From an uncultured Bacilli bacterium (GTDB taxonomy: Bacteria; Bacillota_I; Bacilli_A; RF39; UBA660): a stretch of 64,000 bases of DNA. Both the position numbers and the translations under genes were made by a program. This document shows positions 3,759 to 52,128 of this stretch, piece after piece. How positions within the stretch are numbered: position 1 is the stretch's first letter; each line of letters starts with the position of its first letter. The notes beneath the pieces are model-generated. The model made no database searches, had not been told where the DNA came from, and was given only the letters and a program-made list of their open reading frames with translations. The stretch covers positions 34,661 through 98,660 of the forward strand of contig CALVXM010000002.1 of the NCBI GenBank assembly GCA_944371305.1, given 5' to 3'.

Positions 3759-4661
3759 TTATATTTTTAAATATTTGCGAACCGCACGCCATGAACCAAA
3801 CATACCAACTAAAATGCCAATAGCCATTAAAACCAATGAAACAATATAAGTAAATGGCAATGGTGTAATTAATTGAATAAATGGTGACATAATTTGTCCA
3901 TTAAATGAATTATATAAAGCTTCATAACCTATTATAGTAACTAAAATTGGTATAATTGAACCAAATAATCCTAAAAATAAACCTTCTAATATAAACGGTA
4001 TTTTTATATTAATATTTGATGCGCCAACTAAACGCATAATTTCGATTTCTCTTTTTCTTGAAAAAATAGTTATCTTGATAGTATTTGAAATCAAGAATGC
4101 CGTAACAATAATCAAAGCAATTACAACACCATAACTGACTTTTTTAACAATATCAAATACAGATACTAATTGTTCAACCATTCCTTCGCCATATTTAACA
4201 CTGTTAACACCGTCAATTTGCTCAATTTCTTTAGCTACTTCATCAATTTTATTAATATCGGTTACCTTTACTTGAAAAGCATCTAGTAATGGATTATCTT
4301 CCCTATCATCATATTTTTCTAATATACTATTAAAATCACCACTTTCTTCCATCATTTCAGAAGAAATCGTCATTTTATCTTCAAAAGTAAATGACTCAAC
4401 ATTATTAATAAGATTGATTTCATCCTTAATTTCTTCAATCCTTTCAAGTGAAATATCTCTATCTAAAAAGGCAACAATCGTCATGTCTTTTTCAACCGCT
4501 TTAGTAAAATTATTTACATTAAATGATAAAATTATGGCAATTGATACAACCAATAACGTTATTACAATACAAGCAATTGAAGCTAATGAAAGAGAAAAGT
4601 TACGAAAAACACTTTTAAATGCATCACGAATATTTCTTCCTAAAATTCTAAATGCTTTCAT
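3759..4661 (-). CDS. ftsX: Cell-division ABC transporter permease FtsX
   Basis: Four C-terminal TM helices, a large extracellular loop, and a position directly downstream of ftsE. Start chosen at the ATG (MKAFRILGRNIRD) 8 nt after GGAAGGAGA; it overlaps the ftsE 3' end by 14 nt. Confidence 0.85.
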   Translation of the reverse strand: MKAFRILGRNIRDAFKSVFRNFSLSLASIACIVITLLVVSIAIILSFNVNNFTKAVEKDMTIVAFLDRDISLERIEEIKDEINLINNVESFTFEDKMTISSEMMEESGDFNSILEKYDDREDNPLLDAFQVKVTDINKIDEVAKEIEQIDGVNSVKYGEGMVEQLVSVFDIVKKVSYGVVIALIIVTAFLISNTIKITIFSRKREIEIMRLVGASNINIKIPFILEGLFLGLFGSIIPILVTIIGYEALYNSFNGQIMSPFIQLITPLPFTYIVSLVLMAIGILVGMFGSWRAVRKYLKI

Positions 4662-5343
4662 GAACATATTCTCCTTCCTTATAATCTTTAACAATACGAC
4701 CAGAATCTAATAAAATTACACGTTTTTTCATTTTATTAACAATTTCAGTATCATGAGTAACCATAATAATTGTCGTGCCTAATTTATTAATTTCATCTAA
4801 AACCTTCATTATTTCCATACTAGTATTTTCATCCAAATTTCCAGTTGGTTCATCACAAATCAGTAGTTTAGGGCCATTAACTATTGCTCTTGCAATTGCA
4901 ACCCTTTGTTGCTCACCCCCAGATAACTGATTAGGATAATTCTTAGCTTTATGTTTTAACCCGACTAATTCCAATGCTTTTAAAACTTTAGTATGTATTT
5001 CTGAATTTGGTAATCCAAATATTTCCAAAGCAAAAGCGACGTTTTCATATACAGTAGATTTAGGAAGCAATTTAAAATCTTGAAATACTACGCCTATTTT
5101 TCTTCTTATTTTATAAACATTGCGATTTTTCAATTTGCTGACATTAATACCACCTATATTAATAATCCCCTTAGTAGGTTTTTCTTCACGATATAACATC
5201 TTTATCAAAGTTGATTTTCCACAGCCAGTTGAGCCAATAACAAAAACAAATTCACCTTTTTCAATATTTAAACTCAAATCGTATATAGCAGTAACACCTG
5301 TTTTATAGGTCTTTTCAACATTTTTTATTTTTATCAAATCCAT
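4648..5343 (-). CDS. ftsE: Cell-division ATP-binding protein FtsE
   Basis: ABC ATPase with Walker A GSTGCGKST, signature LSGGEQQR and Walker B LLICDEPT; 231 aa. Confidence 0.9.
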   Translation of the reverse strand: MDLIKIKNVEKTYKTGVTAIYDLSLNIEKGEFVFVIGSTGCGKSTLIKMLYREEKPTKGIINIGGINVSKLKNRNVYKIRRKIGVVFQDFKLLPKSTVYENVAFALEIFGLPNSEIHTKVLKALELVGLKHKAKNYPNQLSGGEQQRVAIARAIVNGPKLLICDEPTGNLDENTSMEIMKVLDEINKLGTTIIMVTHDTEIVNKMKKRVILLDSGRIVKDYKEGEYVHESI

Positions 5344-42076: not shown

Positions 42077-42108
42077 AAATCAAGGATTGATTTCCTTGAT
42101 TTTTATTT
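42076..42108. terminator. Bidirectional terminator after clpB
   Basis: AATCAAGGA-ttgatt-TCCTTGATT hairpin followed by TTTTATTTT. Confidence 0.5.
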
Positions 42109-43401
42109 TAAATTATAAATATATTCAATAAAATAAAGTGGTATATTAATTATTTTACCATCTTTCTTTAAATTATTTAAAGAAAATCTAAATGATATTT
42201 CATTATCATTTTTTAAATTATATTTAGTTAAACTAGTATTATTTGTACTTATATTTGCTTTTACCTCAATTGGAATTACGTTATTGTTTAGTTGAATGAC
42301 AAAATCAATTTCATTTCTATCAAAAGTATAATAATTAGGCGATTCCTCTAGTAAATAATTTAATATATTAGCAACATAGTTTTCCGTAAATGATCCCTTA
42401 AATTCTTCGAAAAGTTTATTGCCTTCTAAAATAATTTTACTATCTAAATTAGCCATTCTTCTTAAAAGACCGACATCATTCATATAAATTTTATAAGCAG
42501 ATAAATCTTGATATGCTTTTAATGGAAAGGCACATTTATTAACTAAATAACATTTACAAATTAAATTAGCGTCATTTAACCAATTTAAGGCCCCTTCATA
42601 TTCTCTTGCTCGAGCGCCTTCTTTTACTACTTGATAAACAAACTTTTTGTTTTCTTTAGCTAATTGTGATGGTATTCCATTCCATATTAAAGATATTTTA
42701 TTAGCTTCGGTTGTATCGACATGCTTAGAAAAATCTGCCTCATAAGAATCTAAAATATTTTTTTGAATTTTATTTACTTTTTCAATATCTTTATCATTCA
42801 CCCAACTATACACTACTTCAGGCATTCCACCAATAATATAATAAATTTTTAACTTTTCAATTAATTCATCTTCAAATATTTTTGGAATTTCACTTATCGA
42901 TTTAATTTGTTTCATAACTTCAACTAAATTTTCTAAACCATCAGCTATTAAAAATTCACTAAAAGTCATAGGGTATAAATTTAAAAAATCAACTTTACCA
43001 ACAGGAAAAGAGGTTTTAGCAAGTCTTATCCCCAAAAGTGAACCAGCACAAGCTATGTGATATTCATTAGCTTCTTCAAAAAAGTATTTTAATGAATTTA
43101 AAGCATTTGGACATTCTTGTATCTCATCAAATATTATTAATGTTGAACCAGGATTTATTTTCTTACCATTAGCTAAAGAAAGTTGCTCAATAATTCTTTT
43201 AGGATCTTTGGTATTTAAAAATAAATTGGCTAAACCTTCATCGTGATCAAAATTAAAATATGCTACATTATCATAGTTATTTAAGCCAAATTCTTTTAAT
43301 ATATATGTTTTTCCAACTTGTCTTGCCCCTTTTAAAATTAAAGGTTTTCTATCTTTGCTGTTTTTCCAATCAGATAATTTTTTAGTTATAAATCTTTGCA
43401 T
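42103..43401 (-). CDS. AAA+ ATPase of the DUF4143 family
   Basis: P-loop GARQVGKTY with a C-terminal DUF4143-like region; 432 aa. Confidence 0.65.
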   Translation of the reverse strand: MQRFITKKLSDWKNSKDRKPLILKGARQVGKTYILKEFGLNNYDNVAYFNFDHDEGLANLFLNTKDPKRIIEQLSLANGKKINPGSTLIIFDEIQECPNALNSLKYFFEEANEYHIACAGSLLGIRLAKTSFPVGKVDFLNLYPMTFSEFLIADGLENLVEVMKQIKSISEIPKIFEDELIEKLKIYYIIGGMPEVVYSWVNDKDIEKVNKIQKNILDSYEADFSKHVDTTEANKISLIWNGIPSQLAKENKKFVYQVVKEGARAREYEGALNWLNDANLICKCYLVNKCAFPLKAYQDLSAYKIYMNDVGLLRRMANLDSKIILEGNKLFEEFKGSFTENYVANILNYLLEESPNYYTFDRNEIDFVIQLNNNVIPIEVKANISTNNTSLTKYNLKNDNEISFRFSLNNLKKDGKIINIPLYFIEYIYNLK

Positions 43402-48267: not shown

Positions 48268-48297
48268 ACAAAAAAATCGACTCATAAGAATCGATTT
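48268..48297 (-). terminator. Intrinsic terminator closing the tRNA-His-adjacent islet operon
   Basis: AAATCGA-ttcttatgag-TCGATTT hairpin followed by a T7 run on the minus strand, downstream of the last islet gene. Confidence 0.5.
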
Positions 48298-48411
48298 CTA
48301 TCTTGAAGTCTATTCGACTTTTTTCCATTCTGGGGCAATAAACAAACGAGTTTTGCACCCAAGTAGTAAAAGTATTTAATAATACTTGGTAAATTAATTG
48401 TAGCACATTTT

Positions 48412-49047
48412 TTATAATTTGTTAATATATTCAGTTAAAATTAAGTTTAATAATTTCATTATTTTTTCTTTTAAAACAGTAACCTCTTGTAATGCTGTTT
48501 CATTAAAAATATCACGTGCTAAAGGCATATCAACCCCTATTTCGTAATGATATTTGTTATCATATAAACAAATTCCAACATCAATATTTTCATCAATCAA
48601 TGTTTTATTTATTTTTTTATATAATTCAAAATCTTTTGGTTGAACACAATAATGAAATACATCATTTCTAAAAGACAAATATTTAGCATTTACTGTATCA
48701 GGATATTCTTCTGGTTTTAAAGTTTCATCATTTAATTCCTCAAATAGCTTTCTAATTTCTTCATTAGTATTCCAATTATCATATAATTTTTTATAATATG
48801 GCGATCTTTTTATAGTACCTAGTAGTTTTAACCCCTCTTTTAAATTGCTTACAAGATTTTTAAACAAATACATTAACATATTACTTAATTGACTATTTTC
48901 TGTATCTTTATTGCCCTTATAAATTGAATCAAACATTTGCGTATTTATAAACAAATCATTATATAAACGCGAAATATTATAATATGCAAAACCTGTATAA
49001 TCAGGTTTATAAAATTTTTCTCTAGTTATATTTTTATTTTCTATCAT
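48412..49047 (-). CDS. Hypothetical protein, third gene of the QueC-like operon (candidate effector)
   Basis: 211 aa, with no recognisable motifs (no TatD HxH, no nuclease or TM signatures seen). The start is 2 nt after the QueC-like stop, with a GGAG RBS inside the upstream gene. Confidence 0.4.
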   Translation of the reverse strand: MIENKNITREKFYKPDYTGFAYYNISRLYNDLFINTQMFDSIYKGNKDTENSQLSNMLMYLFKNLVSNLKEGLKLLGTIKRSPYYKKLYDNWNTNEEIRKLFEELNDETLKPEEYPDTVNAKYLSFRNDVFHYCVQPKDFELYKKINKTLIDENIDVGICLYDNKYHYEIGVDMPLARDIFNETALQEVTVLKEKIMKLLNLILTEYINKL

Positions 49048-49049
49048 AA

Positions 49050-50336
49050 TTACTCCAATACTTTAAAATACTTTTCTAATTCTTTTGCAAAATTATTAAG
49101 TAAACTTTCTATTTCGCTTAAATAATTATCATCGCAATAATACCTCTTATCCAAATCAAGATAATTATATATACTTTTATCCATTATTGCATTATAAAAT
49201 TGTTTATAATATAAAATTAAAGACTTTTTTTCACTATATTTATAATATGCGGCCTTTAAATCTTCATCTATATTATTTTTTTTAGAAATACTACATTCAT
49301 ATTCTTTTATTTTTTTTAAATCAATTAAGTTTTTGGGTAAACAATAATCGGAATCATACATGTCTAATCCATTATTATGAATTCCTATTTGACGTAATAT
49401 ACATGCAATGCAAACTCCACAATGAAAATTACCTTTATGCTTATTTCTAAAATGTACTATTCCTGGATTTTTTGAACATGTCCTAGTATTATTTTTAATA
49501 TGCATTAAATAATTATCTGGAATAAAACTTATCACCTCAGATTTTGTTTTATATTTAAACGGATTAATAACTGAAATATTAATACCAAGTTTTTCTAATA
49601 TTTCATTAAACATAAATAATGTTTTTTGATTAGTGGTCTTAGTAACTCTTCGACTAAAATTAAATTTTGGATTTAAAGACATTATTCCATTTTCGTATAT
49701 TTTAATTTTATTTATGTTGTAATAATCTGCATAAATTATACAAGAAACTAAAAACATTAACGATCTTGTTCTTTCTGTATAATGACTATCACATTTAAAA
49801 TTTTTCTTTAAAATTTCTACTCTAACATTATTAACATCTTTTATTAATTCATCATAAATTTTGGCTGAGTTATTCAACTCTATTGAATTAGTCTGAAATG
49901 TAACAAATATCGTATTATTAGATTTTTCAAATTGCGTTCCAGCAAGTGAATCTAACCCTCCCGATAGGAGACAAATTGAATTGTATTTAATTGTATCTAC
50001 ATCCAGATGATTATTATCAATAAATTTAGGAGTTTTAATTTTATAAAAATTTATATTCCAATTTTCTCCATTAGTAACATATTTTACTAATTTATTAAGT
50101 TCATCTTTTATATTATTAAATAAATCTAAATTATTAACTGGAATATTAAGTGTCAATTTTTTCAGATTATTAGTGTCTTCATCTCTTGGAGTATAAAAAT
50201 CAGTATATACAATATACGATAATGCATCAAACAAGTCTAAAACTATAGAATTACCATAATTTTTAATTCCTAAAAGATTGTTCGCATTATAATGTTCTTG
50301 ATACGGGAGTTTTTCTTTAAATAAAATACTTTTCAT
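49050..50336 (-). CDS. QueC-like PP-loop ATPase (QatC/Cap9-type, with ~120-aa N-terminal extension)
   Basis: PP-loop SGGLDS (ICLLSGGLDSLAG) and a C-terminal Zn cysteine cluster C-x17-C-x2-C-x2-C (HCGVCIACILR), as in QueC. At 428 aa it is twice the size of housekeeping QueC. The start overlaps the upstream stop (TAATG). Confidence 0.75.
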   Translation of the reverse strand: MKSILFKEKLPYQEHYNANNLLGIKNYGNSIVLDLFDALSYIVYTDFYTPRDEDTNNLKKLTLNIPVNNLDLFNNIKDELNKLVKYVTNGENWNINFYKIKTPKFIDNNHLDVDTIKYNSICLLSGGLDSLAGTQFEKSNNTIFVTFQTNSIELNNSAKIYDELIKDVNNVRVEILKKNFKCDSHYTERTRSLMFLVSCIIYADYYNINKIKIYENGIMSLNPKFNFSRRVTKTTNQKTLFMFNEILEKLGINISVINPFKYKTKSEVISFIPDNYLMHIKNNTRTCSKNPGIVHFRNKHKGNFHCGVCIACILRQIGIHNNGLDMYDSDYCLPKNLIDLKKIKEYECSISKKNNIDEDLKAAYYKYSEKKSLILYYKQFYNAIMDKSIYNYLDLDKRYYCDDNYLSEIESLLNNFAKELEKYFKVLE

Positions 50337-50998
50337 TATGCACCAACCCTCCTTAATTTATTCATTATAGAAGTCATTGTATTCTGTACCTTTTTATCAA
50401 AATTATTTTCATCATTAATTTCCATTTTCTCAATATCATTAATTATTATAGGATAAACTTTCAAGTTCATATAAGAATCTAAATCAGTATTATAATCTTC
50501 AGTGCTAAATTCTGGCAATTCATTTATACAATCTTCAAATGTATATTTTTTATAAATGTTTTCAACAATATTTTTAATAAATAATGATATAAATTTTAAA
50601 ATATTTCCATTAGCATCAAAAACCGATTCCTCATCTATACTTTCTTTAAAGGATGTTTTTAATAATTCGTCATCATCTATACCTAAATAATCGCATAATA
50701 TTTCCTTTTGCTCAATTATAGAAAAAGATGATATACCACCTAATCCTATTGATGATAAAGAATTACTATGGTAAGCTTTTGAAACTCTATTTAATTTTTG
50801 AATACATTGAGATAATTTTTGAGAATATAATTTGTTTTGCAATTCACTTCTAACTTTAGATACTCCTTTTGATGGATAAATCATTTCAGAAAGTAATTGC
50901 CCAATACCTTTTCCTGTTTTTCCTACTATTCCATCAGTTATTCCTGATTGAATTATTTTTGATGTTCTTTTATATGTGTTTCTTGTTGATGAACCCAT
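50336..50998 (-). CDS. Small partner protein with predicted Met-Gly N-terminus (QatB-like candidate substrate)
   Basis: The track ORF starts at GTG 51028. In-frame ATGs at 51013 (MGSGSMGSS...) and 50998 (MGSSTRN..., GGGGAG RBS 7 nt upstream) both give Met-Gly N-termini. Translationally coupled to the QueC-like gene; no known domain. Confidence 0.45.
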   Translation of the reverse strand: MGSSTRNTYKRTSKIIQSGITDGIVGKTGKGIGQLLSEMIYPSKGVSKVRSELQNKLYSQKLSQCIQKLNRVSKAYHSNSLSSIGLGGISSFSIIEQKEILCDYLGIDDDELLKTSFKESIDEESVFDANGNILKFISLFIKNIVENIYKKYTFEDCINELPEFSTEDYNTDLDSYMNLKVYPIIINDIEKMEINDENNFDKKVQNTMTSIMNKLRRVGA

Positions 50999-51077
50999 AC
51001 TACCACTCCCCATAAAAAAAGGCCACACAAAACTTACTCAAAGTCTGTACTAGCCCTTTAAATCTATCAATATTATA

Positions 51078-51599
51078 TCAAATATTACTACAAATTACTA
51101 TGTTTCCTTTGTTTTTTTGATTTTGTAGCATCCATTTATATTCTTCTAATTCTTTTAAATAATCTCTTCTAAAATAATTTTCATGTAACCATTTAACTCC
51201 TTCTGCTTTTACAAAAATCATACCTGCTGATTCAAACTTAATTGGATATGGAAACTCCTTTTGCATTCTGTGGACTGCTACTTGTATTACATTTCTACTT
51301 TTATTAAATTCTAAATCTAAAAATCTTAATAAAGTATTTTGATATTTCTTAGGTTGAGGAATTATTCCTAATTCCTGTCCTAAAGCAAATATTCTTTTTT
51401 TATAGAATTCTATTTCTAAAGTTAAATAGTGTTCTTCTTTATTAAAATAAACTTCTTTTAACCATTCAACACATTCTTGTTTTATATATACCTTTTCTTT
51501 ATTATTTTCTTTTATTCTTTTAATCCAAGATTCTAAAGGATGTCTTCTTTCTATATTTCTCATAATTCTACCAAATTGTTTTGTAGTTAATGAAAACAT
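51078..51599 (-). CDS. Hypothetical protein with internal duplication (possible phage antirepressor ORF6C-like module)
   Basis: Two copies of Y/F-[IV]-K-x-E-x-V-x-W-L-x-E-x-YF (YIKQECVEWLKEVYF / FVKAEGVKWLHENYF). Weak or absent RBS. Confidence 0.3.
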   Translation of the reverse strand: MFSLTTKQFGRIMRNIERRHPLESWIKRIKENNKEKVYIKQECVEWLKEVYFNKEEHYLTLEIEFYKKRIFALGQELGIIPQPKKYQNTLLRFLDLEFNKSRNVIQVAVHRMQKEFPYPIKFESAGMIFVKAEGVKWLHENYFRRDYLKELEEYKWMLQNQKNKGNIVICSNI

Positions 51600-51757
51600 T
51601 TCTTGAACTTGTTTTCTATCTATTAATTTTTCACTTATAAAATATCTCCTTTCAAAAGATAAAGGGACGGGTAACGTAATATAAAAATTTTATCTATCAA
51701 GCATGGTGTATACACACCCGTCCACTTGTTAGGGAATACTCCCTAAAACCCTAATAA

Positions 51758-51964
51758 TTAGTCTCCGACAGTTTTATTTTTTTCTATATATTTTTTACTA
51801 ACTTCATTAGATTTTTCAATCATTTCTTTCACTTCTTTTTCATAACTCTTATTATTAATTAATACTTCAGAAAGCAAAGAATAAGATATATCATTTGTGT
51901 TTTCTTTAAAATACTCTAACAATTGTGGTGCAACTATTTCAAAGAAATAATTTATAAAATTCAC
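51758..51964 (-). CDS. Hypothetical small protein
   Basis: 68-aa ORF at the tRNA-proximal edge of the islet; no motifs. Confidence 0.25.
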   Translation of the reverse strand: MNFINYFFEIVAPQLLEYFKENTNDISYSLLSEVLINNKSYEKEVKEMIEKSNEVSKKYIEKNKTVGD

Positions 51965-52051
51965 CGCCTTTACAAAAGAAAAAAGTCCATAATACGAAGT
52001 ATTACGAACTTTTACTTATTTAACACACAAAAGTGTGCGTAAATTTCAAAG

Positions 52052-52128
52052 TGGGGCGCAATAAGGGATTCGAACCCTTGCATAACGGAACCACAATCCG
52101 CCGTGTTAACCCCTTCACCAATTGCGCC
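52052..52128 (-). tRNA. tRNA-His (anticodon GTG) with encoded G-1 and CCA
   Basis: Manually folded: 7-bp acceptor stem GCGCAAT/ATTGCGC, extra 5' G-1 pairing with discriminator C73, anticodon stem GCGGA/TCCGT with loop TTGTGGT (GTG), T-arm AAGGG-TTCGAAT-CCCTT, and encoded CCA. Confidence 0.9.

Follow-up and report, generated by a model that had tools for sequence, protein, structure and literature searches.

QatABCD is an anti-phage system that was reportedly described by Gao et al. in 2020. The locus examined here is compared with it and lies in a 64,000-nucleotide stretch of DNA from an uncultured Bacilli bacterium (contig CALVXM010000002.1, positions 34,661 to 98,660 of the forward strand; this whole stretch is referred to as the window). 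It consists of three consecutive genes, encoding a QatB-like protein, a QatC-like enzyme of the QueC family and a protein of 211 amino acids (aa), termed X211, with which this article is chiefly concerned. The cassette is best described as a Qat-like three-gene variant, in which a QatBC-like core is joined to a new accessory family and from which QatA and QatD are missing, and X211 is tentatively proposed to be a divergent HEPN-like ribonuclease (RNase) that would serve as its effector. Coordinates given without a locus number are positions in the window, and all features so located lie on its reverse strand.

Structures of QatBC have been published in three papers (PMC13279940, PMC13376578, PMC13639016), in none of which the activity of QatC was reconstituted and in which the means by which modified QatB restricts phage was left unexplained. 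From this work QatBC emerges as the minimal core of Qat, with the glycine motif and the flexible tail of QatB being essential and seated in the active site of QatC (PMC13279940, PMC13639016). The nuclease QatD is tethered via the QatB N-terminus (PMC13639016), and QatBC alone defends against some phages, QatA and QatD mainly altering the range of phages affected (PMC13279940). For QueC-family relatives, published work places the Gly2 amine of the partner protein in the active site, where it is conjugated to the carboxylate of 7-deazaguanine. In the type IV form of the cyclic-oligonucleotide-based anti-phage signaling system (CBASS), which comprises Cap9, Cap10 and a CD-NTase, the QueC-family enzyme has likewise been proposed to modify the N-terminal glycine of its partner (bioRxiv 10.1101/2025.04.06.647259). 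A survey seeded with QatD distinguished seven forms of the Qat operon (PMC13434339), none of which has a third gene other than TatD and none of which matches the present cassette, and in a survey of the QueC family qatA and qatD were found beside only about one third of the genes of the QatC cluster, the remainder being undescribed there (PMC13329287).

A three-gene cassette with X211 in the position of QatD

X211 is encoded by an ATG-started open reading frame (ORF) of 211 codons (48412..49047), which is the third gene of the cassette. Tight coupling to the QueC-like gene across a gap of 2 nt had been part of the original prediction and was confirmed: the TAA stop codon of the QatC-like gene (49052-49050) is followed by 'tt' and then by the ATG of X211, with a GGAG ribosome-binding site positioned within the QatC-like coding sequence (49053..49056). 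X211 is translationally coupled to the QatC-like gene, and at the junction before it the stop codon of the B-like gene overlaps the QatC-like ATG by 1 nt. The product is a soluble, acidic protein with an isoelectric point (pI) of 5.6, and the earlier statement that it has no transmembrane helix also held (maximum Kyte-Doolittle mean over 19 residues, 0.83). This ORF is a real gene for a previously undescribed protein.

The 428-aa product of the second gene (49050..50336) can be identified from its sequence matches as a QatC homologue. It matched the QatC model of NCBIfam (4.3e-47, 161 bits, which is under the 280-bit equivalog cut-off), the QatC model of PADLOC (2.8e-39) and the solved QatC structure 9vlk_A in the PDB (7.8e-21), and it carries an SGGLDS PP-loop, a TKTT motif aligned to the TRTT of Escherichia coli QatC and a C-x18-CGxCxxC zinc site. 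Alignment to canonical QatC is confined to residues ~20-330, about 70% of the length, at 23-30% identity. The C-terminal ~100 residues show no alignment to canonical QatC, the corresponding region of which binds QatB in Qat, and this divergence would fit a partner that has been replaced and has co-evolved with the enzyme.

The first gene (50336..50998) encodes a putative substrate protein of 220 aa beginning MGSSTRN. Although the list of ORFs extends this frame to a GTG at 51028, comparison with homologues makes the ATG at 50998 the most likely start. Homologues that are only ~20% identical overall all share the N-terminus MG[ST]S(T)R, which corresponds to the glycine acceptor motif of the QatB type, which is an invariant MGTS in the canonical QatB proteins of the six loci compared. 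At three loci (L037-L039) the B-like gene (~1989-2699) has an apparent TTG start and a raw translation of LGSSTRN; as the mature protein would nonetheless begin Met-Gly-Ser-Ser, the different start codon would leave the glycine motif in place.

To define the X211 family, 5.8 billion proteins were covered by a word-indexed search and 1.84 billion cluster representatives by an exhaustive profile search with HMMER. The former returned four relatives; the latter gave 21 matches at E < 0.001, ~11 of them full length. Two of the 21 (P0019 and P0025) were rejected as spurious, being unrelated repeat proteins. Family members range from 98% down to ~19% identity with their ORFs intact, L028 having a divergent member that scores 5e-20 and has the motif VRDDIAHY. 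A word-indexed search with profile A2 at E <= 10 produced no relatives from outside the family, and it also missed known members located beside QatC-like genes. Neither the 1.84 billion representatives nor 185,579 species genomes yielded a family member away from the cassette, cassette remnants excepted. A phage or plasmid origin of X211 was considered and rejected, neither tblastn against 72,556 plasmids nor IMG/VR yielding any relative. No description of the family was found in the literature searched.

With a single exception, taken up below, the same gene order was seen wherever enough upstream DNA was available: a B-like protein of 209-227 aa, a QatC-like protein of 409-440 aa and then the X211 family member, with stop and start codons at the junctions overlapping or 2 nt apart. 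Such loci comprise the window, L001, L002-4, L005, L006, L007-9, L010, L019-21 and L028, and all nine metagenome loci with enough upstream sequence have this three-gene cassette. X211 is a travelling partner of the QatB-like/QatC-like pair. The neighbors of the cassette vary and include an integrase, SIR2_2, NERD, a YhcG-type nuclease, RloB/AAA_21, an SLFN-like helicase, a MazG-like protein and IS110, flanks that are typical of defence islands and mobile DNA.

Six canonical plasmid loci were used for comparison. In these, QatA (a P-loop/KAP nucleoside triphosphatase, NTPase), QatB, QatC and QatD (a TatD protein) occur in that order, and QatD lies directly after qatC or overlaps it in all six, which is the slot held by X211. 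Searching with the QatC-like profile retrieved ~90 clusters at 34-61% identity, from which the canonical QatC proteins stood clearly apart (26-28% identity, E ~1e-27 to 1e-39). In a neighbor-joining tree the QatC-like clade was separated from canonical QatC in 100 of 100 resamplings. Within the clade, the B-like and QatC-like genes are followed by an X211 family gene in cassettes whose QatC-like proteins are 60% (L019-21), 57% (L001), 41% (L007-9), 38% (L006) and 35% (L028) identical to that of the window. They stand without a downstream partner, next to a divergently oriented upstream gene labeled DUF4238 in a precomputed table, at 50% (L022-24) and 45% (L025) identity, and they are followed by TatD and preceded by an additional ~220-aa gene at 40% (L029) and 34% (L026/27). 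The group with the DUF4238 label is nested within the X211-carrying lineages in 97 of 100 resamplings, and the TatD group is interleaved with weak support. No QatA was found in the TatD-containing sister cassettes (L026, L027 and L029).

Further variation was observed around these sister cassettes. At L022-L025, where the QatC-like gene occupies 4001-5296 or 4001-5284, the divergently oriented gene of ~340-350 aa is conserved and may be an alternative third component; its Pfam label DUF4238 comes from the precomputed table only, the match of the L022 neighbor not being reproduced in a fresh Pfam scan. The additional gene of the TatD-containing cassettes (L026 2713-3360, L027 678-1361, L029 2657-3334) encodes ~215-227 aa, lies just 5' of the B-like gene and has no Pfam or PADLOC match. 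Its N-terminal FVDILGF motif resembles the metal-binding motif of class III nucleotide cyclases. Among canonical-type QatC homologues, P0127 (619 aa) carries a fused C-terminal REase_DpnII-MboI restriction endonuclease (REase) domain (residues 508-611, 1.9e-10), and other long QatC homologues (P0121, P0125 and P0128, of 611-698 aa) have unannotated C-terminal extensions.

The position after QatC, or at its C-terminus, behaves as an exchangeable accessory or effector slot, because it holds the X211 family, TatD, nothing or a fused REase domain, and its recognizable occupants are nucleases. The earlier placing of X211 in the effector or sensor slot of a Qat-like locus is supported by this equivalence with QatD together with the strict synteny. 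The ~90 QatC-like clusters come from low-GC gut and host-associated Bacilli; since their QatC-like proteins score below the NCBIfam cut-off and their partner genes receive no PADLOC matches, such cassettes probably escape being called as complete Qat systems.

Conserved residues, predicted structure and possible roles of X211

The original prediction had recognized no nuclease signature in X211, and on this point it has to be revised, since the family carries an invariant R-[N/H/D]-x3-H, a motif of the kind seen in HEPN RNases. The codons of R127-N-D-V-F-H132 (48652..48669), within KYLSFRNDVFHY, mark a candidate catalytic dyad on the grounds of conservation and of an AlphaFold2 model. R127 and H132, with their x4 spacing, are invariant in all full-length members, including that of L028 and 11 metagenome copies; at position 128 most members have N and four have H, with D occurring in P0020 and the L028 copy, giving a core motif of KYLxxR-[N/H/D]-x-x-x-H-Y. 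Invariant among full-length members alongside these two residues are E71, E108, L124, Y133 and L192, with R27, D31, K63, L69, K70, K74, N120, Y123, E169 and D173 nearly so. Alignments A2 and A7 point to Glu71 (codon at 48835..48837), in the S[NH]LKExLK motif of predicted helix 2, as a candidate second active-site residue.

AlphaFold2 gave a mean predicted local distance difference test score (pLDDT) of 75 when five sequences were supplied, with the motif region below 50, and a pLDDT of 89.6 with a predicted template modelling score (pTM) of 0.85 when fifteen were supplied. The predicted structure is mostly alpha-helical with one beta-hairpin. It begins with a long helical hairpin (17-49/52-81), continues with short helices at 83-92, 96-109, 119-124 and 127-131 and a loop at 132-136, and ends with a helix at 137-152, the beta-hairpin at 158-170 and a long C-terminal helix at 183-210. 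Here the Rx4H motif spans the end of the short helix 127-131 and the start of the loop 132-136, ahead of helix 137-152, and Glu71 lies in helix 52-81 with the spacing E-x2-[KR] (E71...K74). R27, N30 and D31 would face K70, E71 and K74 across the antiparallel hairpin to form one conserved polar patch.

Hallmarks of HEPN proteins include an Rx4-6H motif in which the Arg is directly followed by a polar residue (N, D or H), inserts often present between helices 2 and 3, and a further conserved acidic residue, located in helix 2 and usually within Ex3[KR] (PMC3710099). X211 has the Rx4H, the N/H/D after the Arg and, in the model, a motif placed at a distorted helix end entering a loop, and its insert sits where HEPN proteins often have one, between helices 2 and 3. 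The Rx4H motif thus hints at an RNase effector of the HEPN type, without proving one.

Among family members, two of 22 sub-threshold Pfam matches were to HEPN families. HEPN_Cthe2314 aligned with P0016 (E = 0.03; 14.8 bits, the cut-off being 27.1) over residues 2-128, ending at its R122...H127, and HEPN_Apea aligned with P0012 across its motif (E = 0.92). Of the 24,736 Pfam models, no more than a few dozen are HEPN families. A share of two in 22 suggests an excess over chance, with the reservation that helical queries favor helical families. In structural searches with Foldseek, the HEPN structures 4nqf and HepT 6m6w/6m6u/7bxo recurred among the weak matches of both models.

X211 had been called unrecognizable, and it indeed gave no significant match in Pfam, NCBIfam, PADLOC, PHROGs or the PDB sequences. 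Neither 15 family members searched singly nor the consensus of the hidden Markov model gave anything significant against Pfam, NCBIfam, PADLOC and PHROGs, and phmmer and hmmsearch against the PDB, whether started from single sequences or from profiles A2 and A7, gave nothing but noise, designed helical repeats included. A match to a housekeeping family, named at the outset as the result that would speak against a defence role, was sought in these family and PDB sequence searches and none was obtained. The proposed Foldseek check, run against the PDB and BFVD, likewise gave no match below E 0.19. Two specific relationships were tried and rejected. That X211 is a degenerate TatD protein is contradicted by an hhalign probability of 2% against six QatD sequences, together with the lack of a TatD family match in the Pfam scan, in agreement with the earlier remark that TatD features are missing. 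That it is a paralogue of the B-like protein or of QatB is contradicted by hhalign probabilities of <= 2%.

On balance, the reading of X211 as a putative divergent HEPN-like RNase effector of the Qat-like cassette is the one that we favor, tentatively and with less than even confidence. The three genes would be co-transcribed and translationally coupled, so that their products are made jointly. The QatC-like enzyme would bind the QatB-like protein and modify its exposed Gly2 N-terminus in an ATP-dependent manner, a step proposed by analogy with the action of Cap9 on the CD-NTase and with the 7-amido-7-deazaguanine (NDG) found on E. coli QatB. The modified state of the B-like protein, or a change of that state on infection, would then control X211, which would replace the TatD nuclease QatD as the output. 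X211 itself would act as a metal-independent RNase through R127 and H132, aided by N128 and E71 and probably across a dimer, and phage-triggered cleavage of cellular or phage RNA would abort the infection. The modification chemistry, the formation of a complex, the RNase activity and the defence role are all elements that we infer.

Several observations weigh against this proposal. No significant profile or fold match links X211 to HEPN proteins, and the consensus sequence is without a HEPN match; with Foldseek, the best E value was 0.5 for two AlphaFold2 models against the PDB and 0.19 for one model against BFVD, and HEPN entries had TM-scores of no more than ~0.37. The acidic residue has the spacing E-x2-[KR] and not the typical E-x3-[KR], the motif helix is short, and the fold includes a long C-terminal helix as well as an additional beta-hairpin. 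For the B-like protein, the globular domain gave an hhalign probability of only 1.5% against QatB and no PADLOC QatB match; with no detectable QatB homology in this domain, the analogy with Qat rests on the homology of QatC and on the N-terminal motif. The sole exception to the conserved gene order, L031 (2792-3740), is a deletion remnant in which the X211 family gene is intact without QatBC. The published finding that QatBC alone defends against some phages (PMC13279940) implies, moreover, that the third protein need not be a killer. Because the intact L031 orphan exists, as do sister cassettes with the B-like and QatC-like genes only, we argue that X211 is neither constitutively toxic nor an obligatory antidote.

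The main rival, which we consider rather unlikely, is that X211 is a non-catalytic adaptor, sensor or reader. It would bind the (modified) tail of the QatB-like protein or a phage trigger and so tune or gate the QatBC-like core, which would itself be the active unit, with conserved R, H, E and K lining a ligand or peptide pocket and not an active site. This is consistent with the sufficiency of QatBC against some phages and the mainly range-altering role of QatA and QatD (PMC13279940), with the tethering of QatD through the QatB N-terminus (PMC13639016), with the lack of a significant match of X211 to any enzyme fold and with sister cassettes that have no downstream gene at all; the placing of R27/N30/D31 opposite K70/E71/K74, taken from predicted secondary structure and conservation, would provide a polar patch for such binding. 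However, an invariant R-[N/H/D]-x3-H-Y and an invariant Glu retained down to ~19-27% identity are more usual in a catalytic site than on a binding surface, and the slot is otherwise filled by nucleases, either TatD or a fused REase domain.

It is considerably less probable that X211 is an enzyme of another kind, whether a deoxyribonuclease, a hydrolase of the nucleotide or nicotinamide adenine dinucleotide (NAD) type, or a protein that processes or removes the N-terminal modification of the QatB-like partner. The invariant charged cluster (R27, D31, K63, K70, E71, K74, E108, R127 and H132) would suit many acid-base chemistries, the fold is unrecognized and the reaction catalysed by QatC is unsettled in published work, but no similarity to any such family was detected, and both the motif spacing and the residue following the Arg fit HEPN specifically.

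An antitoxin-like role, in which X211 is an inhibitor or immunity-type partner that silences a toxic QatBC-like core until infection, is improbable. A small, acidic protein (pI 5.6) from a last operon gene that is tightly coupled in translation is what would be expected of such a partner; against this, sister cassettes with only the B-like and QatC-like genes show that the core is tolerated without X211, an intact orphan copy persists without either gene at L031, and the canonical slot holds a nuclease. As for X211 being no real gene, or else a hitch-hiker or housekeeping gene with no connection to the QatC-like system, this reading has nothing in its favor beyond the missing functional annotation and the chance of it is negligible, being effectively refuted already by synteny, given ORFs that stay intact from 98% to ~19% identity and always in the same position, a confident AlphaFold2 model and a family that occurs only with the cassette or its remnants in the databases searched.

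Returning to the HEPN-like effector, a broader proposal is that the cassette represents a third architecture of QueC-based immunity, so far undescribed, in which nucleobase conjugation by a QatC-like enzyme at the N-terminus of a QatB-like protein directly controls a divergent HEPN-type RNase, or else a reader of the modified N-terminus with a new fold. We regard this as possible, on the doubtful side.

The mobile module and its surroundings

The cassette forms part of a 3,641-bp module (48331..51971) containing, in order of transcription, a 68-aa ORF, a 173-aa ORF and the QatB-like, QatC-like and X211 genes. By blastn this module was ~99% identical at three other loci, L005 (2503-6144), L010 (3363-7003; a 1.34-Mb 'uncultured Bacilli' chromosome) and L030 (1077-4717), and the flanks of the four copies differ, being of two kinds on the left and of four kinds on the right. 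At the right end all four copies break after ...GTTTATTGCCCCA, and in L005 a truncated integrase gene was observed right past the module end. In the window, the module starts directly downstream of the terminator-like hairpin (52013-51981, from the terminator scan) of a tRNA-His gene (52052..52127, identified by ARAGORN), and its guanine-plus-cytosine (GC) content is 23.5%, against 26.7% for the window as a whole. No att-type or direct repeats were found flanking the module. Comparison with the 99% identical copies gave too few differences for the ratio of non-synonymous to synonymous substitution (dN/dS) to be informative, and one comparison was affected by an upstream indel.

The two further ORFs of the module occur only in near-identical copies and are absent from distant cassettes, and the conserved core is for this reason taken to be the three genes. 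The 68-aa ORF (51758..51964) is situated at the upstream edge. The 173-aa ORF (51078..51599) encodes a basic protein (pI 9.5) with an internal duplication, the duplicated segments being YIKQECVEWLKEVYF and FVKAEGVKWLHENYF, and has no family match; in L005 and L010 its counterpart is 186 aa long, the window copy having lost the upstream ATG (now ATA).

Several local signals were noted in the DNA around the cassette. A TGaTATAAT extended -10-like element (51072..51080), ~75 nt 5' of the QatB-like start, was read from the sequence as a possible promoter for the three-gene operon; it was absent from the output of a two-hexamer promoter scan. Downstream of X211, the 'strong terminator' of the earlier description was borne out only in so far as RNA folding gave a terminator-like hairpin with a 12-bp stem, a 4-nt loop and a following T-run (~48270..48299). 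Its stem is mostly A-U, it lies ~112 nt past the X211 stop codon and it is missing from the output of the terminator scan; being outside the 3,641-bp module common to other genomes, it is part of the local flank and not of the module. The 3' untranslated end of the module, right before the recurrent recombination boundary, holds an imperfect inverted repeat, CCAAGTA...TACTTGG (48357-48389), which may serve as a site of recombination or fold into a hairpin in RNA.

Three observations concern the wider surroundings of the cassettes. About 5 kb from the cassette in the window is a 432-aa ORF (42103-43401), for which a counterpart is suspected in L022-24, where a 419-aa gene with AAA_14 and DUF4143 Pfam matches lies ~2 kb from the QatBC-like pair. 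At L031, an in-frame fusion joins the N-terminal part of an S4/RluA-like gene to the final ~27 QatC-like residues, which are followed by the intact X211 family gene. Lastly, the contig of L001/L012 (CAYJJQ010000001.1) is labeled 'uncultured Muribaculaceae bacterium' while carrying a low-GC cassette like those of Bacilli alongside genes for LtaS, LytR-Cps2A-Psr and dockerin-type proteins, and the label of this bin may be wrong.

Significance and comparison with known systems

The cassette is a minimal natural variant, with three small genes, no QatA and an output slot whose occupant carries a simple, mutable two-residue motif, within a QatC-like clade that exchanges its accessory genes (the X211 family, TatD and the divergently oriented gene with the precomputed DUF4238 label). 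The function proposed for X211 rests on its motif and its context. If X211 is indeed an RNase, RNA cleavage and toxicity would offer an easy read-out of QatC-dependent activation, and protein deazaguanylation would be linked to HEPN effectors. On the reading of the cassette as a third architecture of QueC-based immunity, three small proteins with a single readable output could reveal the downstream effect of the QatC reaction. So compact a natural system could make the output step of such immunity testable.

With QatABCD the cassette shares a QatC homologue that has the SGGxDS PP-loop, T-[KR]-T-T and zinc cysteines, a preceding gene for a ~220-aa protein that, like QatB, has a glycine motif (MG[ST]S) at its N-terminus and a tail rich in G, S and K, translational coupling of the genes, an accessory gene just after qatC, and mobile, defence-island contexts. 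It differs in having neither the KAP NTPase QatA nor QatD, the slot of the latter being filled by a new helical protein; no KAP-family NTPase of the QatA type was found in the module or beside any cassette of the QatC-like clade examined. X211 and QatD occupy the same position directly after qatC, are similar in size (~210 and ~240 aa), alternate in this slot within one QatC-like clade and presumably share an accessory or output role. Their sequences are unrelated and their folds differ, X211 being predicted to be an all-alpha bundle with Rx4H and QatD being a TIM barrel whose metal site is HxH. Should X211 be a nuclease, it would be metal-independent and act on RNA and not on DNA.

The resemblance to type IV CBASS lies in a QueC-family enzyme and in the proposed modification of an N-terminal glycine as a key step of immunity. 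Unlike that system, the cassette has no CD-NTase, Cap10 or effector activated by cyclic nucleotides, scans of the neighboring ORFs with Pfam, PADLOC and NCBIfam giving no CD-NTase or TGT match, and its enzyme is of the extended QatC type and not a minimal Cap9.

Among HEPN RNases, the systems for comparison are HepT/MntA, AbiD/F/J/U2/V, RnlA/LsoA, Csm6/Csx1 and Cas13 (PMC3710099). No HEPN protein partnered with a protein-modifying enzyme of the QueC family was found described in the literature searched. X211 is like these RNases in its small alpha-helical domain, the invariant Rx4H, the N/H/D after the Arg, the predicted place of the motif at a distorted helix end and, with the spacing E-x2-[KR], the conserved Glu of predicted helix 2, and also in its association with a modifying or signaling partner enzyme, much as MntA AMPylates HepT.

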